Below, in pieces: positions 4,755-62,800 of a stretch of DNA of 64,000 nucleotides. This stretch comes from Amoebophrya sp. A120 (Eukaryota; Protista; Dinoflagellata): assembly GCA_905178155.1 (NCBI GenBank), contig CAJINV010000004.1, positions 2,854,460 through 2,918,459 of the forward strand, read 5' to 3'. Below the pieces are notes generated by a model that had not been told where the DNA came from, did no database searches, and was given only the letters and a program-made list of their open reading frames with translations. The first letter of the stretch is position 1. Every line of letters begins with the position of its first letter. Made by a program: the position numbers and the translations under genes.

Positions 4755-7700
4755 TCATGCGCATGCGCATGACATCACCGTACTTTGTTCACTAAACACA
4801 GTTTTTTCCACCTTGGATACCCACATCCGCAGAAACAAGGCGGGCGCCGCACTCTGCGCAGCGAACCAGCCCACGGGCGGGCCCACGCCCGGCACGGCGA
4901 TCAGCAGAATTAATAGCATATGCATTGCAAAAGTATCGCACCCGTATTGCTCGCGGTTATGCATGTGCATGACAGATCAATCTACTCTCTAATCTGAAAC
5001 AGCATGACAAATGCAAATTTCAGTTTGTTGTTTCCGGAAAATTTGCAAATTATGTAATGTTGAAATTTCCACCAACACGATAGTTTTGCAATTCATATGG
5101 CAGCCCAAAACCGAACAGTTCCGGCTCGTGTGCCGAGCGCGTTTGGTATGAGCGTGCGCGGCTACTTACCGCCCCCACCCCCTTTTATTTTTGAAATAGC
5201 CTAACAGGTGCAATGGATAATGGAATGAACGCCAGGGCCAGCAGCCGAGCAAACATGGACTCTGTGCATGAAAACAAATTCCTGGTGCGCCTGGATCTGA
5301 AATAATTTATTTGCATGACACATGGGAGGGAATGAAGCAGAAGTCCTCGTGCGCTGTTCTCATATGTCGCTCCACCGGCGGTCCAGGAAAGGCGTCGGAG
5401 CTGCAGACGACTTAGTGGAAGAAGAGTAAGCGGCGCCACCGGGAGCATTTTTTTCTGATGTAGAATTACCGCCCCCGCCCCGGTTGAACTTTCCGTAGCG
5501 ATTTTGCACGGAAGCAGTGGCCGCTGTCACGAGAGAAGAGAGGGCGCCCGCGCTCTTGCTGAGGAGGCGCTTGGCAGGTGAGGCAGGTGCCGAGGCTTCT
5601 CCATGCTCGAGATCGAATCCGATTGCACAACCCCCCCTCGAACGTCCCCCTGAATTGTGTGATATGAGCCATAAGTAGCTGAGACACACACTCGTCAAGT
5701 AGAACTGTTGTAGCTTCTGCATCACAAATCCGGGCATGCGCATGGGCTTGGCTTGTTCCGCAGTCATTTGATATCATGCGATCAGTACCAAAAGGCAGCA
5801 AGAATAACTCCGCGAGGACTTGTTCGCCTTCTTCTTGGTACTTCTACTTCGCACGTTGAGAAATAAGGAGAACATCAAGGCGGAGTTGTGTTGAACTCGT
5901 CTCGTAGGCCACCAGAAGCAGCAAGATCTTGAAGACCTTGTTCGGGGCCCCGCTGCCGCGCGTCATCACTCCTCATCATCTTCGACCTCGTATGCAAGCA
6001 GAAAACTGCGAAACAAGGTGTAACCTTGTGTACTAGTTGCATATTACGTGGTGATGTGTAAAACAGTTATAATTACTTCTTCTTGCGAATCTGCATGACA
6101 TGTTGCGTCTTTTTAGACTAGTTCCGTACTTTTTTAAGTACTTTCTGGTGCAGCAACAGGCCGGAATTCTGTACAAATAATAAACGAAATGAAATTTGTA
6201 TAACAAGTATGCAAATGTTGTTCCTGCTCCGATAAAAAAGCTACACTCGTCACAGAAGCTACAGCTACTACAGTTACACTACAATTTGTCTCTTGGATAC
6301 GTCGCCATTACCACCTCCGGTGGTGGCAGCCGTCCAGTTTTTTTGTAGCGAAAGTAGGCGTCGCGCGGCACGAATTCCAGCCGACGGTGCTCTTGGTGGT
6401 AGAACAGCACGCAGTCCGGGTGCTCGCGGAGCCGGGCAATGACCGGGTCCAATACCTCGCGACAGAGCGCGGATACGGCGATGAAGTAGGACACAAACTG
6501 CAGCAGGTTTGGCGTCAGGAAGGGAAGGAAGAAGGTCATATGGAAGCGTCAGGATTGAAATCGTCAAAGTTGAAATAACTTGTAATGCATAAAATCGATA
6601 CCAGTTGGAAGCCCAATTTTCAAGCGGTGCATGACAAATTTCGGCAACGTGTAAATCCAGTTTGTCATGCTGTTTTGGGACAGAAGGCGTCTTTTGTCAT
6701 GCTACTTCAGCAGCTCTACCGCACACCCCAAACAGGCTGACTGTCGGCCTCACTTGCCATCCCGGCAAGAGAGGCACTTCATGCCTTGCAATTTATGCAT
6801 GAGAAATTATTTCAACTTTGACGATTTCAATCCTGACGCTTCCATACGTCACGCAGGCACAGTAAAAGGCGCGCTTCAGCCCCAGTTTGTCGTAGATCAC
6901 AAAAAATTGGAAGACCTGGTACCCGTACCGAAATCGCGCCTGGTGCGAGGAAGCAGAGGAGGAAAATGAGGATGATGGAGCTACTGCAGAAGCTGCTGCA
7001 CCAAGACTATGATCGGAACCGTCACCACCATCGTCAGGCGAAGAGCTACTTGCACTGCCCTCTGCGGTACCGACGCCGGTGATTCGGCTATGCATTGCAA
7101 AAGTATGATCCTCGCGCTCCAGAGCTAGTGTGCGCTTGGGCGTAGCCTGTGCCTGCTTCATCGTCCCAAGTTCTTAAAATCACGCCCAGTTTGTAGTGCT
7201 GGCGAAGGCCGCCCCCGTCGTGGGACACTAGATGTAGATTTTTTGTCATGCTGTATTCACTTCAGGTTCAGTAGTTGCACGAGGTGGACGAGCTCGATAA
7301 ATGTTATACTTTGTTTTGCAGAGGGTAGAGGCCTGTTGCAGCCGTTGGTCCTCCACCGAGCGTTGAGAAAAGGTAGAAACCGATGAGCACGAGGACCCCG
7401 ATCTATCCTGTGCAAAAGTATCGTACTCGTATTGCAGTCATGCATTACAAATTTTTTTCTTAAGCTGCGTCAGCATTACAAATTTTATTTCTAATGCTAA
7501 GGTGGAAATTTGTAATGCATTCATAACGTCGAGTACGATACTTTTGCAATTCATACGATCAGGTTCCGCACAACTCTGTAGGCCATGGCGTCCACAGTGT
7601 TCGAAACCGCTGGGAGGGCCTGTATTTGCTCCACGAACTCATCGACGTTGGAAATGGGCAGGGTCGAGTACTGCTCCAGCTCTGGTCGTGCAATTCCTCC

Positions 7701-9034
7701 ACCAGGAGCAGAAAGGCCGCCCCCGGGAGGTGGTCGTCCGGGTGGTCCTGCCCATGCAGGTCGTCCTTCGTCCCCACGACCTATGCATTGTTTGCAAAAG
7801 TATTGTACTAGTATAAATCGCAATACAAATTGGCTCAGCATTACAAATTAAATTTGTATATGCGGATTTACCCTAGCAAGTAGATTTGTAATGCATAATT
7901 GCGATCAGGATCACTACGAGTACGATACTTTTGCACAGGATACGACCACGAGAGGAGCAGCTACTAGAAGAACTACCTCCGTCCAGCATGAGAGGCCGCT
8001 GAAATTTCGCGTTGCAGCGGTGCAGCAGGTCCTTGAGGGCCAGGAAGAAACAGGTATCCAACTTCTTGAAAAAAAGGTACCGGATCAGAAGCAGGTGCAC
8101 CAGGGGCGCGATGCGCAGAAAGCAGTGCAGAAAAAACCACTCGTACTCCGCACCGATATCGAGCAAGTCGCGCGCAGTCTGGTGAAACCGAAACAGGTAG
8201 AGACACCCGGTGAGCCGCTACGAAAAGAAAAAATGCCCGCGCCGCCCGCGCCTCCGATCCCGAAGATCCCGAAGGGAGCAAATGACTTCGCACAAGAAGA
8301 AGAACTTCTCGAACTCGATGAGTTTTTGATTTTGTATTTCTTTTTTTTACAACATATTGGTGCAACATGCCCATCATGCGCTTGTCTTCAACAATGAAGA
8401 ATTATTTCCTTCACTGGACGCAAGTTCTCGATAAAAAAAAAGGGCGATCTTATATTTAACACACTTTTTTCTCTCGGTGGGTTCATCTGCTGGGGCCGGC
8501 TGCTGGAGGCGGGGCGGGTTTTCGTCAGCACGTTGCGTAGTAACAACAGGGGAGACACGAACACCAAGACCGTCAGTGTGAGAAACCCGAGAATCACAAA
8601 GGCCTGCGCCCGAAAAAATTCCAGCAGCTCCCGGCGGATGGCCCGGGACCGAAGCGAAAAAATCAGTCCGTCGCAGACCGCCTTGCGGCACCCGACGAAG
8701 AAATTTCGGGTGAAGTCGAGCACGTACTCCTCGTCGGTGGGGTATCCACAGAGAATCAGTAAAACTTCCCGCACGCGCTGATGTACAAAAGCGGTCTCTA
8801 CTGCACGACAAAAAAAATGATTTTCCTTCATCCTATTGCTATTCAGCATGACAAGCGTCATGCTTCCAGTTGTCGAAATTTTTGATGTATTTCGTACGTC
8901 GTGTACAGGAAATTTGTATTGCATAGGGGGAAAAAGAAATCTTCCACGACCTTCAGTTCCAGACTGTCGCGCCACTTTTGAGGCAAAAAAGTCCGCTTCC
9001 ACCGACTGTAGTAGGTCGTCCTCCTGCCGCTCAT
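4755..9034 (-). CDS. Multi-pass membrane protein, EI24/CysZ-like; multi-exon, ends uncertain
   Basis: Spliced segments VVEDFFFPTDEEY..IFSLRSRAIRRELLEFFRAQAFVILGFLTLTVLVFVSP, CACVTFFLPFLTPNLLQFVSYFIAVSALCREVLDPVIARL and EPELFGFGLLLILLIAVPGVGPPVGWFAAQSAA resemble the EI24/CysZ helix pattern (..E.LD....R; GFG...LLL.IP.VG). Joining them into one gene is inferred. Confidence 0.45.
4919..5097. mobile_element. Introner, family A (TAT-N5-gcaaaagtatcg)
   Basis: DR tagca/tggca; joins FGFGL|LLIL. Confidence 0.8.
6539..6846. mobile_element. Introner, family C
   Basis: 40-bp TIR tatggaagcgtcaggattgaaatcgtcaaagttgaaataa; DR ggtca/cgtca. Confidence 0.9.
7404..7555. mobile_element. Introner, family A
   Basis: DR cgatc/cgatc. 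Confidence 0.85.
7782..7942. mobile_element. Introner, family A
   Basis: DR cgacc/cgacc. Confidence 0.85.
8743..8925. mobile_element. Introner, family D
   Basis: tatccacag..aaatttgtattgcata; DR tgggg/ggggg. Confidence 0.75.
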
Positions 9035-10293
9035 AGTACCGCTCAAGGAAGACGATGTGGACGGCGCGAGCCTCGGCGTCAAGAATATAAACCGCAGCCT
9101 CATGTTCGATTTCTTGTGCTGGTATCACAACTGTAACTTTAGTTATACGCTTTTAAAGGTTAAAGATGAAGACCAACAGTTTAATATTGCCCATACAACC
9201 AGAAGGAGAAGTCAAGGTGAAGGTCAACAAAGAAATACAGAAATATATTCTACGTCTACAAGGAAAAGGCGGGAGTCGAGGTCGCTTCAACCTTGACTTT
9301 GTTCTTTGTCACGCACAACCACCGGGGTAAACTTCATACATACGAATCGCACCTCTTTGTTCTTCTTGCGCATGTGACTGATAAATTTTGATGGAGGCTG
9401 GCTTCAGATAGATCCTGATACAGGCAGGTGATAGATCTTAAAAGAGATAGATAGATCTTACCGACCTGGTGGCAACCTTTCTTATTGCCAATAAAAGTGT
9501 AAAATTTTTGTGAGATCGTTCGGGGGCGGAAGCCATACTCCCTCCACACTTCCAAGGTGGCGGTCAAAGTGATCATCTTCATCTCAGATGGAGATGGACT
9601 GGAAGCTTGTACCAGAACTCTAGGATTGCAAAAACAACCACACGAGCATATCTATCATTCAACGTGAAGACGTCGAAACCTCCTCGACATGAATGAGAAA
9701 AGACGATGAATCCGAACCACATTGTTTTCACTTCTGATCACGTAAGAAAGACCAGAGGACGACTAGGACCATGAGAAGGGGACCTACATATAAAAAGCGC
9801 GTGGCATCTTATTTGTAGCATGGGGCAAATACGCTTAAAGTTCAACGACCATGTGCTCGTAGTACTTTACTTATGTAGAAGAGCACGAGGTGGAGACGAT
9901 GCTGAAGAACAATTATCCGCGGCCCCTGTTGCATTTTATTTCATGCGGACCACGCCGGAAGTCTGTGGCGTTCGCACGATCGTAATTGTTGCAGAAGCAG
10001 AATGCGCTTGATGAAGATGTTGCTCAGTGTGACTATCGGCCATTAAAATGGGCATATGTAGTTGAGCACAGCGGGTCGCGCAGAGACAAAATGGAGACAG
10101 CACTTGATCTTATTCTTAATGTTTGTTTCCTTGTAGGCATGTGCTCTACTGCAACTGTCTCTACGTGGGCTAGTATGCCATCCGCACATGTCTCTGCTTT
10201 CGGGGCGGACAGCAAACAGAGATTGTGCTGGATAGAAAGATAAGAATTGGCGCCTTGATGTTCTCATGATGTTCTCTACTACAACAGAACAAC

Positions 10294-14253: not shown

Positions 14254-17200
14254 TCACTGCAGCAACTGCCTCACGTGGTGCGGGATCAGGTGCAGCGGCT
14301 GCGTCGCGCAGTACTCCTTCAGATAGTTTTTCCACTCGGGAAACTGCGCCAACTGGTCCTCCAACTGCTGGAGCGGTAGGAGCGACAAGACCTTCGCCGG
14401 CACTCGCTTGTCGGCCGCCTTTTCGAAGGAATACTTGATCGACCACCGGATGCCCTCCTGCAACCGGGAGTGTTTCTCGGAAAAGATGATCGGCTTCTTC
14501 ACCAGCGCGGGGAGAATCTCGGTCGAAATGAAGTCGTTTAAGAAGTCGGCGTGTATCAACTGGAAAAGTGTCTGGGTCTGGAAGGATGCGAACTTGTGAC
14601 GCGTGTTGCGGATCATACAAAAATCTGTGTTGCGTGACTTGCAAAAGGTCCCCATTTATTCTGGCCATGCTGAGAGGGCAGCATTTCTCATGCAGTATAG
14701 GCATCGCCAAGGCGCTGCAGAACTACCTGTGATGCTATGCTTTGCATTCCAGACTTGGTGGAACTTGGAAAAACTGCATGACAAATCTCGTAATCTTCCA
14801 GAGGCAGACCCAGACTACATATTTATATATTTGCATTTGATAGTGTGCTTCTGCAGTCGAATCAACGTCCGGAACATCAAGGTGGGGAACCCCACCGCCT
14901 CTTCCTCCTCTTCCGCCAGACTCTGGAGCGCGAACACGTACCGCGAGACATCAATTTCGTCGGCCTCGAGCAGCTCGTGCATCGTGTTCAGACAAATCAC
15001 CGCCTTGGCGGTCGGGATATGAATTGCAAAAGTGTCTGGAGAGTCTGGAAGAATGCAGATTTTTGTCATGCTGTTTTTGCATGACACAAAATGTCTGTCA
15101 TGGAAGCCCTAGCATCACAGACTTCGAGAAGTAGCTTCCGAATTGCTTAATCCGCATGACAAATTCCCCATTTTGGTGACAGGAAGTGGGCGCCTTTTGC
15201 TGCCTGTGCATGAGAGATTTGTCTGTGTTGTGAAATGCGCATCACATCCAGACCCAGACATTTTTGGCACTTGATACGGGACCAGGTCGCACAAGGTCGT
15301 GTTCAAATGGTGGATTTCGCTGAGTAGCTCCGCGTATGAACTGCAAAAGTATCGTATTCGTATAAATGCATTACAAATTTCCTCGGCATGAGAAATAAAA
15401 TTTGTAATGCGGATTTACCTTAACAAAAGGATTTGTAATGCATGACTGCAATACGAGTACGATACTTTTGCACAGAATACCGCGACCCCCAGACAGTTGG
15501 CGTCCACCTCCCCCACCAAGGTTTCGTGGTTGGAACTCCGATATGCATTGCAAAAGTAATATCGTACTCGTCGTATGAATGCGTTACAAATTCCCCCAGC
15601 GTGAGAAATAAAATTTGTCATGCGGATTTGCCTTAAGTCAAAGATTTGTAGTGCAAGACTTGCATTCACATTCTCATTCATACGAATACGATACTTTTGC
15701 ACAGGATATCCGGACCAGGTGGCGAATGATCCACTTCACGTCTTCCCCGCTCATCTTGCTCGACGTCAGCAAATCGGTTAAGTACCGCACGCAGTCGTTC
15801 CGCGGGACCAGGGCGATGATCGGCATCAGCAGGCGCGGGTTGCCCAGACTCTCGTACTTGGCCAACACCACGTCGCGAAACCGGAAAGGCAGGTTCATGG
15901 GGCGCGCCTTGCGCTCCTCGTCGGTGCTCGCCTGCGCGTACGTGTCCAGTCGCTCCTGCAGCAAAATCTGGAGCATTTTTCCGACCAGGTCGAGCGCGTT
16001 TATGGCGCTCTCAACCGTTACACTCTCAACTGTTACATGAATTTGTCATGCAGAACTACCATCAAGATTCACACTGGAAAGCTGCTTCGCATGACAAATT
16101 TGCGAAGGGCTAAACAGCACCTAAATCTGTGCAAAGCCAACCTCTCCCCTTTCACTTTTCCAATTCTTGCATCACAAATCCACGTAACAGTTGAGAATGT
16201 AACAGTTGAGAATGCCATAGCGTTCACCCGCTCCGTGGCGCCGATCACCTCCAGCAGCTCCGTCCCCTGTTGCGCCTCGGGGTCAATGTGCTTCTATGCA
16301 TTGCAAATGTGTACGTAGTACTATGGATCGTCTGGAGTTGGAGACATGCAGACTCGTGACGCGGCGCATTTCAGATCGTTGTACGAAAATCTGTCATGCA
16401 TAAACAGCAAAAGCCTCCCGCTGTTGCGCTTCTTGTCACCGAATAAAGAGGACGCTTGTATTTGTATGAGTTCTGCTCATGCCGATGCCCATGCGGATCA
16501 TTTAGGCATAATTTATTGGCAGGCCTTGTAAAAAAATGTGGTGCTAGGACAACTTGCATGCCAGACCAAGTTGTGCAGGGTGATGAAGCAAAACCAGCAT
16601 GCCAGAGATCTGCACGCAACTACATGATCCAGGCCCACCAGTAGACATGATACTTTTATTTGCATTTGATAGCTTCACGGCCTCGCCAATGTGCTCCGCG
16701 AGGGTGTCCTTCACAGCCTCCAGTATGAAAGCCTCACAATGGAAATCCTCAAAGTGGAAATAATTTGTGACGCATGAAATGCAAGGCGAAAAAGACTGTA
16801 TTGCAGAGGACACGACAATGGAGACCGACTATTGTCCTGCTAGGGGTTCAGAATTGGGCTGCTGATTAGCACGAGAAAAGGGCACCCCTTTGCCTACCTA
16901 GCATGACAGACATGCTTTGAGTGCCCGGAAAATTTGCCATGCGCCGACTAGAAATGGCACTTCAACTGGAGCCGTTTTTTTGCATTACAAATTATTTCCA
17001 CTTTGAGGATTTCCAACCTGACGAGGCTTTCATATCCAGAGGGCCGGCCTGTTGCTCCGCGATCGAGTAGACCTCCAGCAGCTGTGTGAGCAGTAACGGT
17101 TTCTTGATGCTCATGGCTAAAAACAGCCAGTGGCGCTGCGTGCCCGGCACGACGTGGGGGTTGTTTAGAATCTCCTCGACAATCTGCCGCACGTACCCGG

Positions 17201-20200
17201 AGGGAGGCTATGCACCGCAAAAGCATCGTCATAGTACAAATCGCATGTTGACACTTTGGCTTAGCATTACAAATTAAATTGAATTTGTATATGCGGATTT
17301 ACCTTAACAGCTAAATTTGTCATGCACGACTGCGTCCTCTGCGATTAGTACGAGTACGATGCTTTTCCAATGCATAGATGCAGCGTTTCGCCAAACTTCT
17401 GGTACCCGACCATACTCCGCAGCATCTGCGTCGCGAGATCCTCCAGGTCCTTGCCTTTCAGCGCATCCAGCGCAATCACGCTGTTCATGTTCGTGTCGGC
17501 CACTTGGTGCTGGGCAGCTCCTGTCGTGGATGACGAGGAGGAGGAAGCTTGGTGTTCTACGACTCCAGCTTCCCCCCCTTCCTCCTCCGTTTTCTTCTTC
17601 GAAAGCATGTCTTGCGGCGAGTAGACTTTTCCGGCCAGATATGCAATGTAAATTTCCTGTACATGTACAAAATGCATGACAAATTTCGCTACCTTGCAGA
17701 GTCCAACTTGTCATGCTGGACTAGGTTTGAAGGCAAGTTTTGTCATGCAGAGACTGCGTTTGTACGTGTACGGGAAATTTACTGTGGATACCAGAAACCG
17801 GGTCGCGGTTTGGCAGGTGGATTCGTCGGTGATCGGGCCCTCGCTCAGATGGGTGTACGCCATCTTGAACAGCACCCGCATCGCCTGCGCGCGGGCCTGC
17901 GGAAACTTCTCGGCCACGTAGAAGCAGGTGATCAGCGCCTGCCGCCGCGTGCCCTCGTGGTGGCACTGGCCCTCCAGCTTCGCGAACAACGACTCGGGGA
18001 GGTAGGGCAGGAGGCCGAAGAACTCGCGGAGCTCCTTTTTCGTCACGGTCCCGAACTGTTTGGCGTACACGCGCAGAAAGAGGTCGAACATATGACAGCG
18101 CACAACTCCCCCACCTCCCCCTCATTGGTAGTATATCAGCACGAAGGGCAACACAAGCATCAGCAAGACTGCCGGTTTTGCATGGCAAATTTAAATTGCA
18201 CGACTGGATTGTCGCGCTATTTGGGCTACCAGAACTTGTCATGCATAATAGTGAAAGGAGGGAAAGTGTGCTGGATTGGGTGCTTTGCATGAGAAATGAG
18301 AACGAGGGGGAGTAGCATGTTGTGCACTGTGATAGAACAAGCTCGCATAGCTGAAGTCGTGGTCGCTGGCCACTTCCAGCGCGATATCCTGAGGAAAAAT
18401 GTCCCCACCCCAGAGCTGTCATGCAGATTTGCGATTACAGGAAGATTTGTAATGCGCATCTCCTTGAGAGGCGTTTCCAATCGTGTTTTGGAATTCGTAA
18501 TGCTGTAAACAGGATAGGCAGATGGATTCGTGATGCGGTTGTCGTTGCTAGTAACATGCACTACTCTACGGACTGCAAGTTGTCATGCGTGGCTCCCAAA
18601 ACTCGTCGATTTGTGTTGCTACGTTCCCATCTTGACTCTGGTGTGGGGACGTTTTTACATATGATACGCGACCTTGAGCCGGGACCGGTCCTCCATGGTA
18701 CGCTGGATCGTGGAGGCGTACTTGGCATAGAAGAGGGGCAGGATGTCTTGCTGCCACGTGTCGTTTATGCATTGCAAAAGCATCGGACTAGTACAAAACG
18801 CATGACAAATTTTTCGTTTAAGGAAAAATGAAATTTGTCATGCAGAACAAGCTAAAAAAGCAGATCTGTCATGCAAGACCTGCATTTATAGATACGAGTA
18901 CGGTACTTGTGCACAGGATATCGTTCGATTTCACCAGCGCCTTGCCGATGGCTTTCCCGTAAAACACCTCCTCCAACAGAGGGTCTTCGATGAAACTGGC
19001 GAGGTGGGAAACCACACGGTTATTCATCTGGTCGAACTGTTTCAGCGCTGAGTCGGCCATATCAAATGTAAAAATGTCTGGGTCTGGAAGAATGCAAGTT
19101 TGTCATGCTTGTCTCACATGACTCTTGAATTTGTCATGCACATTACCCAAGAGCCCTATTTTTCTGTCATGCAGAAACGCAGTTTGTCATGCGGAAGAGG
19201 CAATAGACAATAGACACCCAAAATAGCTCGTAGAACCCTGTCAACTTCCGCCAAGTGAAACATCACTGGTGAGGTGAGCCCAGGGCCCCTGGAGGTGAGA
19301 AACGAGGGTGGCACCTATAGTCGACCATACCAACTGGTCAACCAGGAAATGAGGAAGTGGGTAAGGAACACAAATGTCCCGGGATAACAAAAACTGAATA
19401 TCCCGCACAACCTCTAGAGAAGAGGCAACACCTAGAAGCTCAGAAACTTGTCATGCTGAGCCAGCACTTGTGGCCTCCTCATGATACGCCACCCGGCATC
19501 ACAAGTTTCCAGACCCAGACATTTTTGCATTTGATAGGCCACGCAGCTGGCCTGCAGACTCCGCATCATCCGGGACCGGGCCTGCAGCACCTCGTGAAAG
19601 ACCATCTGTTGCATACCCTGGATCTGCTGCTGCCCTGCCGACCCCTCGAACTGCGTCACCGTGGTGTCCAGGTACTGCTCCTTCGTGCTATCCTTAATCT
19701 TCTGCCGTTTCCTCGCCCGCGGGTCCGCCACCTCCTGGTCGGCCTCGTCCAGGAAGGAGTCCGCAGTGACTACCTTGCCGCTCCCGGGAACGAGGGTGGC
19801 GGCCCCCTGGGTTCCCACTTTTCCTCCGCCGCCAGCTACCGCGGCGCCTCCGGTACTCGGCAAAGCCTCCAGATCCTTCGTCGCGCGCAGCGGCTGCTCA
19901 AACGTCTTCGCCGAGTCGAGCTGCTTTTCCAAGCCGGTGAGGCACACGCGAGCCGCGTCCTTGGGGTTCAGCCGCAGAGTCATCAGTGTATACGGTTCGA
20001 CGTACTTGGTCTGGTCGGTTTCTACCAATTCCGACGCGGACACGACTTGCTCCGTCCCCAGCAGCGTGTCGCCATCAAAGGGCAGCTTCGTATGCAATAC
20101 AAACTTCCCGTACATGCACAAAATACATGACAAATGATTTCGCTATTAACCTGGTGGAGTCGGGTCAAAGAACTTGTCATGCTGACTAAGTAGCCTAATG

Positions 20201-49800: not shown

Positions 49801-52800
49801 AGCGTCTGGGTCTGGAACAAAGTATACTTGTCATGCTAAATCTGAACCTTCGCTACCCGCCATGCTAAATCTGAATCATGTAAAAGCTCTGTGTTGTATG
49901 ATTGCCAAAAGCTGTCCACTTTTGACCTAGTCGACAGGTAGTTTCTCATGCTGCAAAGGCATGATAGAACTCTCACAGAATCTGTCATGCTATGTCCTAC
50001 ATGCCAGACCTCCTGGGACATGGAAAACCTGCATGACAAGTCTGGCACTCTTCCAGACCCAGACACTTTTGCAGTTGATAGAAAGGCGACGACATCGAAA
50101 ACCCCGGTGACCGGGTCCCACCATGTCGGATGCTGTCGCAAGAAACTCCAGTAACTCTCCGGTAGCGGACTCTGGTCCGCTTCCGCGAGCGCGAAGTCCA
50201 CCAACCGACGGAACTCGGACCACCGCAGGGGAACCACGGAGCTGTTGTTTTTCGCCAAAAAGTCGAACAGCTTCGTCCGTAACTTCAGCCAGCAGGGCTG
50301 CAACTTTTGCGCGACCGCACGGAGGGAGAGGTAGAACAGCAGCGCTTCGACCGTGTACAGTGCGTCCATGGGTTATGCAACACAAATCTAGCATCGTACT
50401 ACACGGACCATCTGCTATCAAAAGCTGTGGGGTAATGCTGAGTTTGATTGTAATACCAGCAGCAAAACTTTGTCATGCAATAGTGCATTTTCATTTTGTG
50501 CGTCCTGTAATACGGGAGTAAACTTCCTGTAGATATCGGCTTCTCGCGCAAATGGTGGACGACAGGGACGGATTGGTGCAACAAAGTCGTGAAAAATGAG
50601 GAAGAGGAAGTTGTGCTAGTCTTCACGGCAGCAGAAGTTGCACCAGCATCATCACCCACTGAAGAGGACACCATCAACCCCTCCAGCAGGCACTTGGGGA
50701 CGATTGAAGTGATCATGTCTTTCAAGACGGTTCCCTCCGCGCCGCCCTTTCGGTACGAAGCGTCTTGTATCCGGGTGATCAGGTTCACCACCTGTGGCTG
50801 CGGTGCCGCAGCAACCCCTCCTCCAGATGAACCGGCTGTATGCAACGCAAAAGTTGCATCGCTGTCGTACTAGTGCTGCGGCTATTGATAAAGGTAATTC
50901 TAATTCTAATTGCATATACAAAGTTGCTCAGCATGATCATGATGTAATGCTACGAAAGTACACCTTCGGAAAAAAATGTCTTGCATGACCGCATTTTTTA
51001 GTACGACGGCGATAGTTAGTACTTTTGCAATGCATAAGCCGCTCCACCACCACCTTGGCTCGCGATCTGCTCGTCGGCGAGCAACTTGCACAGCACTTCC
51101 ATGATCAGCTCCAGGGGCGGACGCAGTTTTTTCGCGGCGGCGATCGTGGGCGGGCCGTGCCCGAGCACCCAGCTCCACTTGGTTTGGGTCGCCACGCTCG
51201 GGATGCTGTAGGAGGGGGTCACTAAACTGGACGGGAGCATCAACATGGGAGCAGGTGGTCCACCACGAGCAGTTGTTCCACCACCCGTAGGATCGGAGGG
51301 CACTGAAATTGCAGCACCACTCAAGGGCGGGAACGACGTCGTTGGGTCCACCCGCAAATCCGTTTCCAGCCCCGGAACGCAGACTTGGTAGGAAAACAAA
51401 AACTTTCCGACGAGTTCCGTTTTGGAGGAAAAGCTGCCCCACGCGCTGGTCTCGATCGCACCCACGTCCGCGTAGAGTGTCATACTGCCCTCGCCGATGC
51501 AGGCGGGAGCTGTGGTAGGAAGGAAGTTCCTCGTTCTTCAAAATATGAGGATTTTGACTAATGGCCGCAGCTGTAACTCATACATAGAAATAAATACTTT
51601 CTGGTTACGCGACAGTGACTACATCAGAAAAAAACAAGGATAAAACCCAATCCTACCCGCCCCACTCCCGCCGATTTGAAACAGCTTGGCCGCCACTCGC
51701 ACGATCTGCTCTGGGGCTGGGATGGTTTTCGGTTTCGCGGGAATTGCAATGGTATCCAGGAAGAAACTAAACCCATCCCCTGGAGATCATCATCAACTTT
51801 TTGCATGACAGACAATGCATCTGATGCACGTTTTGCATCATGACAAATTGGTGGACAGGAGAGTAGACGGGTGTAGTTTTTCCTCAGTGGATAAATGGGT
51901 ACCAGTTCGTCCACCGGCCCGAGTTGCGCCCAACTAGAGTTGGGCGCGTCCAAAAACGCGGTGACTTGTAGCGGCAAACTCCGGTGGTTGGTAGTCGCCC
52001 CGGCGGTGGTGGTCAAAGCGTATTCCACGTAGTAGCAGACATTGTTCCCCACCATACCGTTCCGGACCACGGCGCCCTTCAGCCGCAACAGCATCTTGCG
52101 CTCGTGCCCCGTGATCTCCTTCGGCAGAGGCGGTGGAGCAGGAGCCGGTGGAACAGCAGCGCCCGGAGCAGGAGCGCCAGGTTTCGGTACGGCCGACGAG
52201 GGTTGCGCCATCGCCGCGCTCCCGTACACCGAGGACACGGCGCTGCCCCCGTACACCGAGGTCGGCCCGCCGAAGGAACTTGCAGAGGGCGCTTTCGGCA
52301 TAGCGGGCAGAGTAGAGGATCCGACTCCTGGTTTATTGCTCGCAGCTCCAGATGAGTCCGCGTTTATCCCGGTCAGATACAGCAAGCTCATCACATCCGC
52401 GTTGGGTAGGGTGATGGAAAATTTCACGTCAACGGACGCTAGGAACTCCCCCGCACTTTGCTGCAGAAACAGCTGTTGTTGGTGAGCAGAACTCATGGCG
52501 CCGGACGGGCCGGCCATTTGCGCGGAACTTGGCTGGGCCATCATCGTGGTTCCGGCTGAGGTGGAAACCGCGACGTTAGCCGGCCCACCGGACGTGAAGG
52601 TCGCGCCTTGGGCAGCTGCTGCACCAGGGCCAGTTGTAGTACCTCCCATCGGTCTGTTCACACCTCCCGGTCCTCCTCCGGCGGGAAACGCAGAGGAGGA
52701 ACTGCTGCTCTCCGGCCCGCCTACCTTCGCGTGGAACTGGGCCTTGCGGTTCAACACCAATGCGGATTGTGCCTTGGACGCGTCGAGTTGGCTGTGCAGC

Positions 52801-55800
52801 AGTTTGAGCGGGAAGGTGTCCTTCGCGAGGCACACCTCCACCGACTTCGCGCGGTCCAGCTGGTGGAATTCGTCATTCTGCTCGATTACCAGCCACAGCT
52901 CAATCACGCCGATGTCGGACTTGAGAGCCTCGAAGAACCCCGGGGTCGGCGGCAGCAAAGGGGATTGCCACTGCCAGTATCCACAGAAAAAAACCCATCC
53001 ACATCCATTTTTTGCATGGCAAACACATGATTTCATACGTGTTTTGCATGACAAATTGGATGTGGGTTGGTTTTTTTCTGTGCATAGCCAGTCGCCGAAG
53101 TCCAGAGCAGTGTAGCCTGGTTTGCTGGTTGTAGCGGGAGTTGACCCTGATGAAGACCCCGTGGCGGGAGCTTGTCTGAAATTGCTCATGGAGCTCGTAC
53201 TTGACGCCGCTGGAACAACACCAGCAGGACCAGCCGCTTTGCTTGCTGAAGCACTTGGCATGAAACTCAGGGACGCGACCGCGGCCTTCGCGGCCGAATT
53301 CGCGACGGAGCTGTCCATGGACTGCGCCACCACCGGCTGACTGTCCGTCCCGCCGGCCATGCGTGCTTTCGCTGCCGCCACTGGGGATAGGTCGCCGTTT
53401 TGCGGAGGAAGCGCTGAAGAGGGCTTCATCGCACTTGTTGTACCAGTAGATGCGTTTGCTGCAGAAGCTGCGCTAGTAGTTGTAGCTCCTGTGGGACCTC
53501 CTGCTGCTGCAGCCGGTGCGGCAGCAGTAGCTTTGTTCGCAGCAGAAATTGCTCCAGCTGCTGTAGGTGCTGGTGCTCCTGCTGGTGCGCTGCCGTTTTT
53601 ATTACCTGAAGACGAGGAAGCGGACGACCATCCCAACAACAAGGATGCCAACGACATGGGCTTCGGCTCTCCCGAAATCCAGGCGCCACCGCAGGCCGCC
53701 TGCAACTTCGGGTGGTTCGGGAACAAACCGATGCGCAGCACCACGCGCACACTCTGGATGTCCAACACGCTTGTGGACACGCTGGGTTGCAGCGAGCTTT
53801 TGTACCACTGCTCCGCGAGCCGGCGGAACAGATCGGGATTCAACTCGCCCCTGGACAACCCAATCTCGATCCCCACCGTGTTCTCCACCGTTTGCTCTGT
53901 TCGAGACACACGGGAGACCGCACCTCCACCGGATAGACATGAGCCCCGCACCGTGGAAAGTGGCGGGAAAAACACCATGCCGGCACCACCGGCACCACCA
54001 CCAGCTCCAGTGGAAGATGATGACATCGCAAACGCTGTGTCTGCTTGCGCGGCGCTCCTGTAGTCCCCGCTTTTTCTCCTCGGTAGCGAAGAGTCAAGTG
54101 CTGCGCCAGCGCCGTTCAAAGTTATTCCTGGGAGAAGCAGGTCAGCGCTTGCTCCTGCTGGTCCTGCTCCACCACCCCCTCCCCCGCCAGCGCGCATTTG
54201 GTACGACAGCAGGCTGTTGCCTTCAAACGTGGTCCGCCAACGCGGGGCCTTTGCGGTGCAAGCCCGGCGAATCTGGTAGAACAGGCGGACCACGACGCTG
54301 CCAAGTCTCGTCCCGTCACTGGACAACACCGGCACCGGGTTTTCCCACGTGGCGCCCAGCAAAGCCTCGGCCTTCCAACCGCCTTTGGCCTCGGCAACGT
54401 CGTCCAAGAACGCGGCGATTGCCTCCGTCGGAAAGACGCAGCGACCGACGGTAACCGCAGTGCTGCTGCTGGAAGCGGTGTTATCGAGGTACCGCAACGC
54501 GCTACGGGTGTTGTTCACCGTCGTCCCTGCTGCTGTTTTATCAAATGCAAACTACATGATCTCTACGTCTGGAACTACGTGCTAAAGTTTCTTGTCAACT
54601 ACATGCAGGTTTGGCATGGCCCAGATATGGTCTGGAACTACGCGTACGCAGGGCCCCGCATCACAAGTTTTCATGCGACGGATTTGCAGTGCCTGTTGCG
54701 CATGAGAAATCTTCATCTCTCAACAGCGTGGCAGATGAACATGCATTCTGCCATATTACGCATTACAGGTTCACTCGTCTTGTGTGTCCTCTCACAAACA
54801 GCATCACAAGCTACTCGAATCTGTATTCCAGGAGATGTTCTTGACCCAGACATCATGTTTGCAAAAGTTCATATGCACCTGTTGTAGCTGTGCCGTCGGA
54901 AGTGTAATTGCTCCCACCGCGGTTCTCCGGTAAAACACGCACCACATCGAGCAACAGGCCGCAGGAAAGCGTTCCTAGCCGCACTTCCTGGATGAGCAGG
55001 TCCGTCAGACTGTCCCCCGCATTTGAGGCCAAGCAAAACGTGTGCGACGCAGCAAAGTCCAAAGGGTAGAAGCCACCCGCTTGGCTACTCGTGGTTTGCG
55101 CTTGATACGTCGTGCCGTGGCAGGCGTAGCGGAGAAAATACCGTGGCTGTGCGCCGCTTCCTCCGTTTTCGGAAGTGCCGGCAGGGAGCGACATTTATGA
55201 AAGGGCACAAGACCGCAATTGTTTATAGTGGTCCCCCTGCTGCGCCTAGTTCTAACCAGGGGGCACGGCCAGCAAGAACAGAAACAGCTTTCCCTATATT
55301 TATATTTCCATTTCGTTTTCGCTTTCGCAGTTTGCATGACAAACGAGGGCGACGACTCGTGTTCTTGGGTTGTGCGCTTTCATAAAGTCAAATCGGTTCC
55401 CAGAACGCGGATTTCTAGCTCGTGTTCGTCATAATCAGAGGTGATGAGAGGAAGAAGGGAGAGCCGACGGAGAGGGTAAGAATCTTTATAGCCGGTCTGC
55501 TGTTCATCTCCTGTGTCGTCTTTGATAGTTCTCGTCAACGTCGGACTACCAGCAGCAGCGATCCCACCAGCTGCACCTGCACCTCCTGTGTAGCGGAAGT
55601 AGAAGTTTGTCAGCGCCGAAGCGTTTTGCAGCACCTGCAGGCACTCGCTTTCCGTCAAATTGCACTTGTCCAGCAAGTTTTGCAGCAGCTCCTTGCTGTC
55701 CACACTGTCTTGGTCTTGGTCAAGAAGAAACGAGGACACTGCGAGCTTGTTGTCCGCCTGCTGAAACTTGCGCCAGGTTTTTTCTACATCGGTTTGCTGC

Positions 55801-58800
55801 TCGCCAGTGGTTGTAGTTCCTTGCCGCGCAGCTGAGGATCCCGACACGCCGAACGCCGTGGAGCATTTGCTGGTACGACCAGGCCCCCTGGCTGCACCTC
55901 CGGACGGTGACCTAACTTCGTTTTCTAACACAAACAGGTTCATCCCGGAATCGTTCCGATTTGCTGGTTTCTGCAGTGAAGACGAATTGCCTCCAAATCG
56001 CCTTCTCCCAGCACCTCCCGAAGTAGATGTTGCCGCTCGGTTGGCTCGGGCGAAAGTTTCGCAGCTGGCACGGTCCACCGTGCGAGCTGATTCGACGGTT
56101 GCGGACAATGTTGAACTTGCCCCGGGGTAAATCAACGCCAGGAGGTTCTTCAGCTCAAATACGGGAATCCCGTTCTGGTCGCACATGCGCTCTTGGAAAA
56201 CCTTCAACGGGAGGGAGCCCTGATCCTCGAAAACGCTCGGCAAAGCGTTTGTGAACGCATCCAGGTCGAAGGATGTTGCTTGCTCGAAAGCCTGCAGGGT
56301 CAGTGTCCACGTTGGTTTCACCCCGAGGTCCTCCGCGGTAATGTCTGCTGCAGAGGAAGAGCTGCCACTATCTTCCTCCTGCAGAACCGTCGTCACAGCG
56401 CGGCGCAGGTCGCTGAAATCCAGAAACCCCTTACTGCCGCGGTCTAGCGACTTGAACGCACTCCCCAGGCTGATGTCGTTGCGGCGCATGGTTTGCGACA
56501 GTTCGAAAAAGAGCAAAGGAACCAAATGCTGCGCTTTGTTTTTCATCGTGGTAGACGTAGAGCCTCCTGCGGTTTCCTCTTCCGCGCCGGCTTTGCCTGC
56601 ACTCCCGGCCGTACTTGCGTCTGTTTGTAGCTGCTTTTCTACTTTGTTCGTCGCCGAAACAACGCCGACAGAAGTGGAGCTTTTGCTGGACGAACCCGAC
56701 GAGGCAGTTGCAGCTCCGCCCGCCTTTGACGCGCGGCGACTGAAAGTTGTGGTTTTTTCCGAAGCCGTTTTGGGCAACACCCGGTCCACCAGGCCGGGAA
56801 TCTGAGCGAAGTCGAAAACCGACGTTGGCGGCGCGCGGAGGGTGAGAAAGCCGTTGCTCGCCGCAATCACGGTGTCCACAAAGTCGTCAATCAGCTCGTC
56901 GTCTGCCGGCAGACTGGTAGTACTGTTGTTGTCCTTTGCCAACAGAGTCCGCACCTGCGCCGCATCCAGCCTCGCCCCGAAGGTTTCGGGCGGCAGCGAC
57001 GGCGCAAGTTGCTGCAGAATGGTGAAGCCCACACTCAGTGCGTGCTCGAGGTACATGCGCTGCTCGTCGCGAAGCGCGTCGAGGAGTTCCTGAGAGAGAA
57101 TGAATAGTGAAGCAGGTTCTGTCCGAACAAGAAAATTATGATCTTGAATGATAGTTCAGAGTGCACCATCAAAAGAAATTAGGTCGTGTTGCACGAGACT
57201 TGGCCTCGTTCTGGGCAGATCTTCCATAGATTTATCGGGGTATACTTTTCAGAAAGGATACCTTGTACGACACGAGATCCCCTTGGCGGTAGTCGTATCC
57301 TGTGCAAACCTATCGTACTCGTGGAAATGCATGACAAATCTCCTCAGCATTAGAAATGAAATTTGTAATGTGGATTTCGATTTACCAGAAGAAAAAAATT
57401 TGTAATGCATGACTGCAATATACTACGGGTACGATACTTTTGCAGAGCATAAATCGTTCCCCAGCACCCGCAAGTCCTCTTTGGCGAGAAAGACGCGGCC
57501 GACTGTCGCCGTCAAAATCTGACCGATTTGCTCGTCGGTTAGAAATATGCAGCGCAAAAAAATCGTGTTCGTACCAATTGCATGAGTACTTTTTGTTTTT
57601 ATAGCCATGGGCATGACCAATCTGCTTTAGCACAAGGTAAACTCTCAGGACTAACTCCATTTTTCATTGCCCATCAAACAAAGATGTATATGCAATTCAC
57701 TTGATATTGATTATATATACTGGTACGATACAAGAACTCTTGCACATGATAAGAAACCCGCTCTTCTTGGCGTCAGCAGCGAGGAAGCGGTCCACCAGGC
57801 TGCCGGGTTTGTTCTGTGGATTGGATGAACAAGTCGGAGCTATAAAATTAATGTGTCTTGCACTACTACTTGCACTGACACTGAGTGTAAACCAAGTTGC
57901 ACAAAGAACTTAGCCATACGCACTAAGAAGAGAAGCATACTTCTTTGACAATCTGTATCTGAATAGAATCCTATACCTTAGTCGCCCGGAAAACGACTTT
58001 CAAAAGTCGCGCCTTCAAGCTCTGCCGGTATTCTGCGGAGTCCAGAACTGCCGAGAGGAAATCCGACACCAGCACCTTCTCGTTCACCGCCAGTGTGCGC
58101 CACAATTCGGAGCGCGCCGTCTTCGGAAGAAAAGTCGGTGGAATGATGGACAGCCGTTCCTCCAGCTCCAGGCGGGACAAACTTTGCGTCGTCGCAGAGA
58201 GCGCGTTTGGTCTTGGCGCGTTGGGCGGCGCGGTTAGGTGGTTCGCGAGGTCGAAAATGATCCAGGAGTGCTTTAACAGCCACATCCGGACCTTCGGTAG
58301 CGGGGAGTTACTCGATATCACCACCGGGTACTCGTCCGACCATTTTGGCAGTTGCCCGACCGCTTTCAGCAGCTTCTCGAAGTTTTCCGGCGTGGTTGAC
58401 GTTGACGAGGACGAGGCTTGCTTGGTACTGCTGGTACTAGTTCTTGCACCACCATCTTCCGCATTATTATGTCCTGTAGTCGTGATCGCTCCAGCACCAA
58501 GGGCTCCTGCTCCGCCAGCCTGCTGCACACTGACCGCAGCTACATTGCTGACGTTAAGATTCGTGAGGAAGTCGAAGAGCGAATGCAGGTCCTCTTTGCT
58601 GTGCGCACAGCCACCGGACGTGGCGAGCAGGCTTTCGCAGGCGCCAACAAATCCGAACCGATCCAGCCTCGTGCCTTCCAGAGCCTGCGGGGCCAACGCC
58701 GGATATTGACACGAAATAATTCCACCTACACGACGTACAAACTTCTAAGCGGCATCTGCATGAAAGAACTGTTGCTCTGATGTGTCTCTCCGCTTCTATT

Positions 58801-58989
58801 CAGCATGACAAGTAGCTCGTATGCTCTAGAAAAACAGCGAGATTTCAATTTGATGACTTCATGTCGTGTTTTAGTTTATTTGTAAGTGTGCGGAAAATTT
58901 GTATCGGATACCGGCGGGGACGACGCTATTGCAACTGGTGGCGGGACTGCGGGTGGCGGCGGATCTGCGCCGGTCGTGATCGAGCTCAT
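46878..58989 (-). CDS. Very large multi-exon protein with EF-hand-like and C2-like segments
   Basis: Successive minus-strand ORFs join in frame across introners (e.g. SSPP|ALAPQ, DFGDW|QWQS, EKP|MDAL). EF-hand-like AFKSLDRGSKGFLDFSDLRRA and beta-rich C2-like stretches (TRLGSVVVRLFY; LKSDIGVIELW). That it is one gene is inferred; family not identified. Confidence 0.5.
47994..48132. mobile_element. Introner, family D (reverse of 17640)
   Basis: DR ccgct/ccgct. Confidence 0.9.
48370..49326. mobile_element. 805-bp insertion (48446-49250) inside a coding exon, flanked by a 76-bp duplication of exon sequence
   Basis: cgcgacgtcc...ggagacccgtt at 48370-48445 and 49251-49326 (1 mismatch). Both copies encode RVSSIKNAASREREVVEGTLLRTS. 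Confidence 0.8.
48700..48766. repeat. Perfect 25-bp inverted repeat with 17-nt spacer
   Basis: tccaactatggagacaattttggga ... tcccaaaattgtctccatagttgga. A third partial copy lies at 48799-48815. Confidence 0.9.
49788..50080. mobile_element. Introner, family B (left end CAT)
   Basis: DR caaag/gaaag; reverse relative of 20723. Confidence 0.85.
50374..50535. mobile_element. Introner, decayed
   Basis: tatgcaac..tgtagata; flanks tgggt/tcggc; joins EKP|MDAL. Confidence 0.55.
50839..51036. mobile_element. Introner, family A, decayed
   Basis: tatgcaacgcaaaagt..acttttgcaatgcata; flanks ggctg/agccg. Confidence 0.75.
52978..53086. mobile_element. Introner, family F
   Basis: tatccacagaaaaaaacc..ggtttttttctgtgcata; DR gccag/gccag. 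Confidence 0.85.
54539..54873. mobile_element. Introner, B-like, decayed
   Basis: tatcaaatgcaaac..gtttgcaaaagttcata; joins TTG|AAGTT in frame. Confidence 0.6.
57296..57451. mobile_element. Introner, family A
   Basis: DR agtcg/aatcg. Confidence 0.85.
58704..58910. mobile_element. Introner, D-like, decayed
   Basis: DR ccgga/ccggc; joins SSPP|ALAP. Confidence 0.65.
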
Positions 58990-59855: not shown

Positions 59856-62800
59856 TCAGACGAAGTTCGTTAATGCATTGCCCTCGTCCACAAATTCCTC
59901 GTCGGCTTGCGTCAACAGCCGAAAATGCTGGTGGTACGCGATGCCGATGGTTTTGATCGGTCCCTCCTCCATCACCGTGAACCGCGCCCCGTTCGCCGTG
60001 AACAGCAACGCCCACGGCTCCGTCACGTTGTGCCGTGTCGCGTCGTGGAACTGCAGCACCACCGTAAACGGGGCGGTCCGGCTGACGTGCCAAAACCCTT
60101 CCACCGCGTGAAGCTCGTAGGACTTCGCGTTATTATTTCTGGCAGAGTATAACGCGTGCTGTTCCTGTGGAGGAGATGGCGCAGCTTGTGCTTGATCTCC
60201 TGATCCGGAAAGGCTTGGAGTTGCAGAAGAACCAGTGGGAATACTAGCTCCGCCTTCCCCTGAAGCGGAAGCTGCAGATGGAAACAAACTCGTTCCCGCC
60301 CACGCTGCCAGGGAGTCCGACTTGTGACCCGGCGGTAGTTATCCATGGGAAATATGTCTGAGTGTCTGGAAGATTGCAACAGTTTTTGTCAACCTTGTCT
60401 GGCAGGACTCTGAGCTAGTTCGTGACGCATAGCCACGAACGAATCGCCTTGGCTGTAGTCTTGCTGCAAAAGCGCAGTCTACACATGGCAGCCCAAACAC
60501 TTGGCGTGCGCGACCACGGATCGCTACTTGCAGTGCACTCATCACAGTCATCATAGTCATTCCCACAGAGTTGCATTTTTACAATTTTCCAGACCGTCAG
60601 ACACTTTCGCAATGGATATTAGATGCGGAAAGTGTCGCAATCCCAGCTCGACCTGTCGCAGGTTTTGCTCGTAGATGTTCTGCATCAGCTGCGCCTCTAT
60701 GCATCGCAAAAGTAATATGAATATCGCACCAATTGTACTGTTGTAAAAATAGAATCACAACTTTGTTTTTCAGAAAGAAAGATCGGTGGATTTTCATCCA
60801 CTTACCAATTTGCTTGGGAGGACGAAAAAGGTGTGCACAAGTATGGTCATGCATGCCTGTTGCCATCGTAAATCACCCAATATTCGACGTACTACGAGGA
60901 CTCCGATACTTTTGCACGCGGGGGATACCTTCCGGAGCGAGAGGGGGGTGGTGCTTCGTCCTCCGGGAAAGGGACGTGGGAGTCCCGTAAGTATAACCCG
61001 CTCCTGTTGAACCACCAGAATCCACACGATAATTTCTCTCCACCTGCTGGGATAGCACCAAGCGAAACCGGTTTCTCTTGCGGAATTGCAGGTACCCGGA
61101 CACCCGCTGGAGACCCTGGCTGCGACCGCCTTCGAACACGTGGGGGATGGACTCGAGGATTATCCACAAAAAAACAACCATCCCCACCCTCCAATTTGTC
61201 ATGCAAAACACGTATGATTGAAGTTCTGTGTTTGTCATGCGTAAAATGGATGGTGGGGTTGTTTTTTCCTGGATAAGCATCCCGAGCGGCAAGGCTGGAA
61301 AGACGTCCATGAAGTGCTGTTGGAAGCGGGCGTTGTCGGCCTGCCACTGCAGGTCGTGCATGCAGAAGACGCCGTAGTTGAGAATGGACCTCTCCAGCAG
61401 CTGCCGCACCACTGGGCGGACGAGCAAGTTGCCGGTGCCAGAGGCTTCGTGTTCGTACTGGTAGAGCGTTTGCGGCTTCAACAGGATGGGCCGTGGGTCG
61501 TGCTTGATGTGGTCGAAAAGGTTTTCGAAAAGATTCTCCATTTTCCTCTGCTCGGAAAGATCAACATTCGACGAAGAAGCACTATTTCTACCCACGCCCG
61601 TCCGCAACGCCCAGTCCGCAAAGTCTCGGTAGACTTTCAGCATCTCATCGCGGCACTCGTGCAGGTCGCGGTGGAACCGCAGCAGGTTCTCTTCCGTATC
61701 CCGCCCGACGTCGCGCAGCCGGCAGGCGTGGCGGGAGGCAAACAGCCGCTCTCGGAGGTAGATATTGATATTGTTGGCATCGTTGTTCATCATGTTCGTG
61801 GAGCTGCTGGAGTGCTGCTTGATGTTCTTCTTGTCCACGATTTGTAGTTTATTTTCCGATTCCGCAAACCACTCTTTCGAAACGAACTGCGGTTTCAGTT
61901 CGACCAACAGCCCCTCCGGGTGCGTCGGAAAAAACGCGGCTTCCGGACGGGCGGCGGAAAGCATGCGGCCCTCGCGGTGGACCCACGGGCGTGTTGACGA
62001 GGAGGGGAATGGTGGTGGGCGAGTTTTTACTCCTGTTGTTCCAACAACTTCATTCTCTTCAGGACCTTGCTGTTCCCACCCTGTTCCCGACAGGTACTCG
62101 TCGAGTTTCGGCTGAAATTCCGCTTCCCAGCGGGTTTTCTGAACTTGGGGCTGCTGGTGCGCGGTTAGAGGTGGTTCTTCTTGCTTTTCGACGTTTTGGT
62201 CGTCATTTTCAGCCGCCGGTGGACACTGCAGCATGTGCGCCGCGTCGTTTTCGCCCCAGTTGTGCGGGAATCCGGAGCCGATGTGCTTCCACTTGGCCGC
62301 GAAGAAAGAGGTCAAGCCTGTGTCCTTAATCGCCTGCATGACGCCGGGAAAATAGAAGTCGTGGAAGATCAGCGTGTGGACGCAGCACGCCAGCTTCGAC
62401 AGCACTGCGTTAATGTCGAATAGCACCGCCGCGTGATCGTGCAGGGCGTCGATGAAGACGACGTCGATTCGGGTCGAGGAGAGCGCTAGCGGCCACGTGG
62501 CCCCCTCCTGATACAGGTCGAAGTTGAGCTTCAACAGATTCGGGTAGTTCGGCACCACCAGTTTGGTCAGCTGCGTCCGCTTCTCGATGCAGATCACCCG
62601 GTGGAAGAGCTTTACACGGATTTATCATTGTACAGGCGGCAGGGACGAGGAACAAAGGTGCTTTCACTGGTGGCGGTTGAGAATTTGATAATATCGATGT
62701 GAATGTACTACCTACGCTACAACTAAATGCAGAAAATACACACAAGTCAGGTCGTCTACCAGGGGGCCCCCAGGGCTCCTTCTCAACTCAATGCGAAAGT

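Follow-up and report, generated by a model that had tools for sequence, protein, structure and literature searches.

Introduction

The introners of the dinoflagellate Amoebophrya sp. A120 were described by Farhat et al. 2021 (PMC7789003) as 29,850 copies with inverted repeats that begin with TAT followed by seven variable bases and three or more A, flanked by direct repeats of 3-5 nucleotides (nt; 5 bp in the legend of Fig. S19), and the same paper reports co-oriented gene blocks in A120 and already discusses a likeness to MITEs (miniature inverted-repeat transposable elements). Here we analysed a 64,000-nt stretch of DNA (64 kb; 'the window' throughout), which is A120 genome as judged by protein identity, and in which short elements with inverted TAT/ATA ends lie in genes. 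These elements are very probably the published A120 introners, spread as DNA transposons and removed together with one copy of their target duplication in both orientations, in our view by a modified spliceosome.

Introners that form introns in either orientation have been described in Aureococcus anophagefferens (Huff et al. 2016, via PMC10228655 and bioRxiv 2020.10.14.339549) and for classes of Polarella glacialis elements (bioRxiv 10.1101/2020.10.14.339549), whilst a published introner screen allowed for opposite-orientation copies (PMC9860276) and a third Amoebophrya is reported to have mostly GT-AG introns (PMC12005148). The orientation of the elements is not mentioned in the text and legends of PMC7789003 (figures aside), where all four uses of the term in the main text and all three in the supplement concern genes. 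No statement on element orientation in A120 was found in the literature covered, a scope that leaves aside Huff et al. 2016 and Roy et al. 2023 in its final version.

Each family occurs in both orientations

A position-weight scan of element ends, followed by hand curation, gave 66 candidates, of which 33437 and 33758 were dropped because both lie within stretches skipped as other introns, leaving a catalogue of 64 elements of 109-477 nt (14,693 nt in total). Their inverted ends have the form TAT[CG]...[CG]ATA, the TAT[CG] being followed by about six variable bases and then by AAAA (A-rich at positions 11-14). A 5-bp direct repeat adjoins both ends, perfect in 34 of the 64 elements and with one mismatch in 19. 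The duplication length is 5, since among the 66 candidates 33 repeats were perfect at 5 nt and none at 6-9 nt, and shuffled flanks gave 0.5 perfect and 1.5 one-mismatch 5-bp repeats per 66. No base is required within the duplication, which shows a mild G/C excess at its fourth position only, and the longest ATG frame within any copy is 90 amino acids (aa). The elements thus have the characters by which MITEs are recognized: small size, terminal inverted repeats, a duplication of constant length, no transposase gene and insertion in both orientations.

Clustering placed 37 of the 66 candidates in six families (one of 77 edges inconsistent), and all six contain copies of both orientations within the window, with orientation counts of 5/8, 5/4, 3/2, 3/1, 2/1 and 2/1. 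A sequence-only reading of the window had proposed this arrangement from 21 start coordinates, each of which coincides with the first base of an element end (TAT; CAT at 49788 and TGT at 21214), and from 12 pairs of copies named as reverse complements. To keep the inverted termini out of the scores we cut 16 nt off both ends of every copy before aligning these pairs locally, and all 12 scored higher in opposite direction than in the same direction or than any of 200 shuffles. Scores are given below as opposite/same/best shuffle.

6539 and 25997: 254/67/29
16724 and 32064: 376/61/28
14554 and 31288: 164/26/26
20723 and 49788: 291/35/27
19060 and 26445: 190/30/30
19060 and 41079: 193/28/25
17640 and 47994: 134/29/21
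15335 and 40490: 145/30/23
30639 and 40490: 150/35/24
1581 and 61161: 63/23/22
52978 and 61161: 83/37/24
21214 and 29901: 47/22/31 (the weakest pair)

The same reading had placed every host gene on the minus strand, and this held wherever it was checked (exon queries, proteins, GT-AG introns and open reading frames (ORFs)), the host of element 1581 lying outside these checks. Its interpretation of the elements as DNA-mobilised MITEs is supported by the 5-bp duplication, the terminal inverted repeats and the mixed orientation.

Both orientations are removed with one copy of the duplication

In order to follow removal we compared contigs of runs X1-X4 with window positions 23201-33900 at 99% likeness. 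Among 15 joints listed of 20, all ten that fall at elements (23711, 23932, 24323, 24712, 29901, 30639, 31288, 31627, 32064 and 33140) skip exactly the length of the element plus 5 nt ('length+5'), whilst the remaining five are GT-AG introns on the minus strand. Five more elements fit length+5 by contig sums of 2305 nt (nine elements of one gene), 587 nt (25997 and 26445) and 693 nt (25071, 25350 and 25538), each of them exact. Family B is represented by 23711 (+) and 30639 (-), each of which skips length+5 by a direct joint; family A by 24323 (+) and 32064 (+) by joint and 25997 (-) by sum; and family D by 29901 (-) by joint and 25071 (+) by sum. Family B is therefore removed both ways by joints; in families A and D one orientation is covered by a joint and the opposite one by a sum. 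This bears out the earlier proposal that either strand can serve as an intron, opposite copies of all three families skipping length+5 in transcript-type contigs. Contigs of run X5, whose matches include many paralogous copies, continue through six elements and through GT-AG introns, which shows that skipping is not the normal state of the genome.

Deposited proteins agree with removal of length+5 at all 39 elements compared (16 in P0001, five in P0004, 11 in P0005 and seven in P0011). P0002 and P0003, homologs of P0001, carry no extra residues across most of the element sites of P0001 (protein alignment only). Removal of length+5 restores the reading frame, and in four fully opening multi-element genes the frames obtained with +5 are longer than those with +4, +3 or +0 (e.g. 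896 aa vs 315, 279 and 284 aa); in several small or single-element regions this offset test is uninformative or places another offset ahead by a few residues. Elements 40490 and 41079 are supported solely by a longer open frame (1659 aa vs 1443 aa unspliced). Overall, RNA or protein support covers 54 of the 64 elements and 18 of the 21 copies on which the sequence-only reading was based.

Raw RNA runs X8 and X9, which carry the same species label as X5, contain family A and family C fragments that lie in different flanking sequence, without the exons of the window. These pieces match 16724, 20898-20948 and 32299-32349 and cover six and four of 30 bins, respectively; they could be related elements in a different strain, which is how we read them.

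A single cut position fits the informative sites

Identical duplication copies allow any of six offsets for the cut, but where the two copies differ the retained base reveals the offset. We write j for the count of duplication bases that the 5' exon retains. The contigs require j to be at least 1 at 31627 and 25538, at least 2 at 23932 and at least 3 at 33140, and j=4 was noted as a prediction before the protein comparison. The proteins require j of at least 4 at 14554, 63107, 4919, 5991 and 7089 and of at most 4 at 49788, 60340, 60698 and 8743, and none of the 39 protein-checked elements excludes j=4. The valine predicted at 49788 is present in P0005 and in its homolog P0007. The intron is therefore likely to read N-TAT[CG]...[CG]ATA-NNNN, with the cut 1 nt before the sense 5' end of the element and 4 nt after its sense 3' end. 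Of the earlier suggestion that the splicing information is symmetric, the part concerning the element itself stands, whilst the cut is off-centre on the element (likely 1 nt and 4 nt).

All nine predominant non-canonical boundary types of A120 begin N-T (Table S4 of PMC7789003), as this register would have it, although the legend of Fig. 3 in that paper describes the splice sites as variable and the border as unknown. Against that description, a single offset of j=4 fits every informative site, which is an addition of the present analysis; no statement of one fixed register for A120 was found in the literature covered, the figures of PMC7789003 aside. The deposited A120 gene models were built from BLAT-aligned transcripts (PMC7789003, section 25).

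In the decayed element 5991-6299 the differing duplication copies give GT...AG at exactly the inferred cut (j=4), and this copy is possibly a step from element to canonical intron.

The elements discussed above are as follows, with window coordinates, orientation, family and what was found on removal.

6539..6846, +, family A: one-base mismatch in the duplication; cut as length+5 in P0011
16724..17034, -, family A: perfect 5-bp duplication; length+5 in P0001
24323..24628, +, family A: joint skips 311 = 306+5 in X1, X2 and X4
25997..26310, -, family A, same gene as 24323: with 26445, 587 nt gone from an X4 contig
32064..32357, +, family A: joint skips 299 = 294+5 in X1 and X2
4919..5097, +, family B: at least 4 duplication bases remain in the 5' exon (mismatch; P0011)
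15335..15479, -, family B: length+5 in P0001
17209..17376, -, family B: at least 3 duplication bases remain in the 5' exon (P0001)
23711..23873, +, family B: joint skips 168 = 163+5 in X1, X2 and X4
30639..30783, -, family B: joint skips 150 = 145+5 in X1 and X2
40490..40641, +, family B: removal from ORF continuity only
14554..14842, +, family C: at least 4 duplication bases remain in the 5' exon (P0001)
19060..19536, +, family C, the longest copy (477 nt): length+5 in P0001
20723..20984, -, family C: length+5 in P0001
26445..26707, -, family C: removal by sum in X2 and X4 contigs
31288..31516, -, family C: joint skips 234 = 229+5 in X1, X2 and X3
41079..41330, -, family C: removal from ORF continuity only
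49788..50080, +, family C: at most 4 duplication bases remain in the 5' exon (Val in P0005)
21214..21442, +, family D, one end TGT: length+5 in P0001
25071..25295, +, family D: with 25350 and 25538, 693 nt gone from an X4 contig
29901..30143, -, family D: joint skips 248 = 243+5 in X1 and X2
1581..1696, +, family E: placed by clustering and pair alignment only
52978..53086, +, family E: length+5 in P0005
61161..61275, -, family E: at least 3 duplication bases remain in the 5' exon (P0004)
17640..17790, +, family F: length+5 in P0001
47994..48132, -, family F: length+5 in P0005
8743..8925: at most 4 duplication bases remain in the 5' exon (P0011)
60340..60618: 1 to 4 duplication bases remain in the 5' exon (P0004)
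60698..60927: at most 4 duplication bases remain in the 5' exon (P0004)
63107..63415: at least 4 duplication bases remain in the 5' exon (P0004)
33140..33384: 3 or more bases of the sense-upstream duplication retained in contigs; the joint from 33133 to 33384 skips 250 = 245+5, three letters fitting either side

Splice signals and the internal motif

A GT-AG or GC-AG reading at any of the six offsets is available in three of the 64 copies, leaving 61 without one. Under j=4 the first intron base is free (A 17, C 16, G 17, T 14), and T at +2 and A at +3 occur in 64 of 64, a figure partly built in by the selection of copies. On the acceptor side the same register gives a T-rich stretch at -18 to -15 and ATA at -7 to -5, the closing four bases being free. 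G or C occupies the last intron position in 49 of the 64 copies compared with 62% in the flanks (p=0.014), which is only a hint because it was one of ten positions tested, and no pairing rule links the first and last intron bases (neither G-G nor A-C). The fixed signals are present on both strands because all of them belong to the inverted repeat. Of the 64 copies, 56 fold into a terminal stem when read in sense and 55 when read in antisense. Consistent with the earlier remark that no strand-specific pyrimidine tract is evident, the pyrimidine fraction of whole elements in the sense direction is 0.498; in the subterminal 40 nt the difference between sense and antisense is -0.02 (p=0.04), opposite in direction to a tract.

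The internal motif GCATGACAA and its variants (GC[AG]TnA[CG]A) occur at 11.2 per kb within elements and 0.39 outside, about 29 times more densely. The motif is strand-neutral (74 sense and 90 antisense; 49 vs 49 for GCATGAC), and its commonest same-strand spacing is 31 nt (13 cases), about three helical turns. It is a likely transposase-binding site, as a prediction from the sequence. The motif with its variants is common to otherwise unrelated families and is similar to a portion of the terminal repeat. Its TnAC-like form suggested a general branch point, a reading that was rejected because the motif is strand-neutral and family B lacks it in the last 70 nt; it also lies 30-50 nt from the sense 3' end only 14 times in the 64 elements.

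Host genes and other insertions

P0001 and P0011 are 100% identical to exons of the window, and both are named Amoebophrya sp. A120 by their sources. P0001 was located by query with a minus-strand exon, its homologs being from A25 (82%) and one further proteome. The queries that retrieved P0001, P0004, P0005 and P0011 were all minus-strand exons and the proteins map to the minus strand, on which the five GT-AG introns seen in the contigs are also read. After removal of the elements the longest ORFs are 1678, 1580 and 896 aa on the minus strand and at most 327 aa on the plus strand. The host genes are:

4500..9103, minus: gene of P0011 (641 aa); seven catalogued elements
14254..22097, minus: gene of P0001, symplekin/Pta1-like (PF12295, PF11935); 16 elements
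23550..27300 (approximate limits), minus: nine elements; a 474-aa open frame once each is cut as length+5
29800..33900 (approximate limits), minus: six elements and five GT-AG introns, all gone from the same contigs
46881..58989, minus: gene of P0005 (2852 aa); 11 elements
59859..64000, minus: gene of P0004 (1006 aa, Methyltransf_24); five elements; extends past the window end

An exon of a Brix-domain gene (PF04427) lies at 11872-12816, also on the minus strand. Further partial or decayed elements outside the 64 were seen at 1-156, 4136-4819 and 5147-5364, the last of which is cut as length+5 in P0011 and stands outside the counted set. The GT-AG introns 33428-33570 and 30992-31214 contain the internal element motif or an element-like end and are perhaps old elements. 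Three insertions have long direct duplications as flanks. One at 48370-49326, of about 800 bp within a coding exon, is flanked by a 76-bp direct duplication (99% identical) and lacks TAT ends; it contains a family C end fragment and a long inverted repeat, P0005 skips it, and it may represent either a further type of removed insertion or an artefact of the assembly. Two others, at 1972-3452 and 28160-28981, are flanked by duplications of 51 bp (100%) and 68 bp (85%), the former containing a 12-nt tandem repeat whose arrangement is inverted, as well as the sole N of the window.

Discussion

A mechanism can be proposed in which a transposase supplied from elsewhere would make a 5-nt staggered cut with little target preference, GCATGACAA serving as its putative binding site. 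Duplications of 5 bp typify Copia-type integrases and Transib. Gozashti et al. 2025 (PMC12130899) describe a family in A120 that combines inverted ends with Copia/Gypsy-like ORFs, and it is a lead to a candidate mobiliser. Once inserted, an element would yield an intron that starts 1 nt before it and ends 4 nt after it, as the mismatched duplications suggest. Because the ends are inverted repeats, either strand would offer the same signals, namely TAT at +2 to +4, TTTT at about -18 to -15 and ATA at -7 to -5, together with a stem that links the ends. The TAT at +2 to +4 would keep the T and the purine of a GT-A donor with the G relaxed, and a putative modified U2-type spliceosome would read these end signals and measure from the stem to the 3' cut, with no need for AG. 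We further suggest, with nearly as much belief as doubt, that the splicing code lies wholly in the inverted ends of the transposon, the cut being made 1 nt before TAT and 4 nt after ATA on whichever strand is transcribed, without G, GT or AG, so that insertions anywhere in exons and in both directions would be silent; in the boldest form of this idea the remover would not be a spliceosome.

Several points weigh against our reading of the elements as spliceosome-removed introners spread by DNA transposition. No transposase was found within the 64-kb window. Copies were chosen by their TAT/ATA ends, and the invariance of these ends is hence partly built into the catalogue. The contigs of X1-X4 derive from one sample of one study, their status as RNA is a guess and they give no efficiency; one X1 contig continues unspliced through element 23932, and ten of the 64 elements stand outside the RNA and protein evidence. 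The exact register is drawn mostly from deposited gene models, contig RNA alone giving a lower bound of 3, and in no family is the cut fixed to a single base for both orientations: for family C this is so in + only, whilst family B yields a minimum of 4 in + and of 3 in -. There is also no G preference at donor +5 (11 G and 19 C in asymmetric copies, p=0.20).

That no transposase was found in A120 by the authors of PMC7789003 counts against DNA transposition and speaks for spread through RNA by reverse splicing, as proposed for fungal introners (PMC9860276), the opposite copies then stemming from later inversion or from antisense transcription. All six families are mixed, however, the 5-bp duplication flanks both orientations and the internal motif is strand-neutral (49 vs 49 for GCATGAC), so that we regard this route as hardly credible. 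Introners made by reverse splicing would all be sense and lack a target duplication, and neither property was found here. Loss of the elements from DNA rather than RNA, by precise excision or programmed elimination leaving one duplication, would account for exactly the observed loss of the element with one duplication, and the uncertain nature of the X1-X4 contigs gives it some room; yet five GT-AG introns are gone from the same contigs, X5 contigs retain six elements together with GT-AG introns, and the retained bases follow the direction of transcription, which is unexpected for DNA excision, making such loss very improbable.

The elements might instead be removed from RNA without the spliceosome, by a structure-reading cut-and-ligate system acting on a terminal stem with 1-nt and 4-nt overhangs, as is suspected for euglenids. 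Neither GT nor AG is needed, the first and last intron bases follow no G-G or A-C rule, a terminal stem forms on both strands, U1 small nuclear RNA was not found in A120 according to PMC7789003, and euglenid inverted-end introns are described as being excised as circles (PMC11282704, PMC12501133). On the other side, T at +2 and A at +3 lie exactly in the spliceosomal donor register, two of the five GT-AG introns seen in the contigs begin GTAT or GTAC, the decayed copy at 5991 reads GT-AG at the same offset, and nearly all spliceosomal proteins as well as U2, U4, U5 and U6 are reported for A120 (PMC7789003). We consider spliceosome-free removal, the chief alternative, unlikely, and prefer removal by a modified spliceosome of elements that spread as DNA transposons.

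The sharper addition made here is a concrete, testable border rule, N-TAT...ATA-NNNN. If it applies genome-wide, the splicing of thousands of non-canonical introns in A120 without a detected U1 becomes testable through the donor register and the distance from the stem to the 3' cut. If it holds, inversion of an element is predicted to leave the messenger RNA unchanged, and gene finders could place the borders of A120 elements exactly. Should the code indeed lie wholly in the inverted ends, one ruler rule would replace variable borders and would explain the invasion of exons by tens of thousands of copies.

Comparison with known systems

Both the system and intron-making transposons that act in either orientation are already published, and the headline of the present analysis is not new. 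The window elements agree with the A120 introners of PMC7789003, as characterized in its text and legends, in organism, TAT ends, 3-5 nt repeats, non-GT-AG removal and occurrence in families, and we treat them as the same system. With the elements of Aureococcus and Polarella, as quoted in the sources above, they share inverted ends, target duplications and the formation of introns from either direction of insertion. Those elements, in contrast, bring a single splice site of their own and take the second (G[TCA] or AG) from the duplication or the flanking sequence, a canonical-site recruitment that is not seen in the window, where 61 of 64 elements are without GT/GC-AG; the quoted Polarella classes have 8-nt duplications, whereas ours are of 5 nt with no required base. 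The nonconventional introns of euglenids are similar in their non-canonical borders, lack of a pyrimidine tract, offset-pairing inverted ends and probable MITE origin (PMC11282704, PMC12501133). They belong to another lineage, are excised as circles and carry CAG at +4 to +6 and CTG at -8 to -6, compared with TAT at +2 to +4 and ATA at -7 to -5 in the window. Fritillaria borealis offers MITE-like introns with inverted ends and duplications that are handled by an adapted spliceosome (as summarized in PMC11282704); there the intron ends are fixed as AG-AC or AG-AT, whilst in the window elements the first base and the last four are free.

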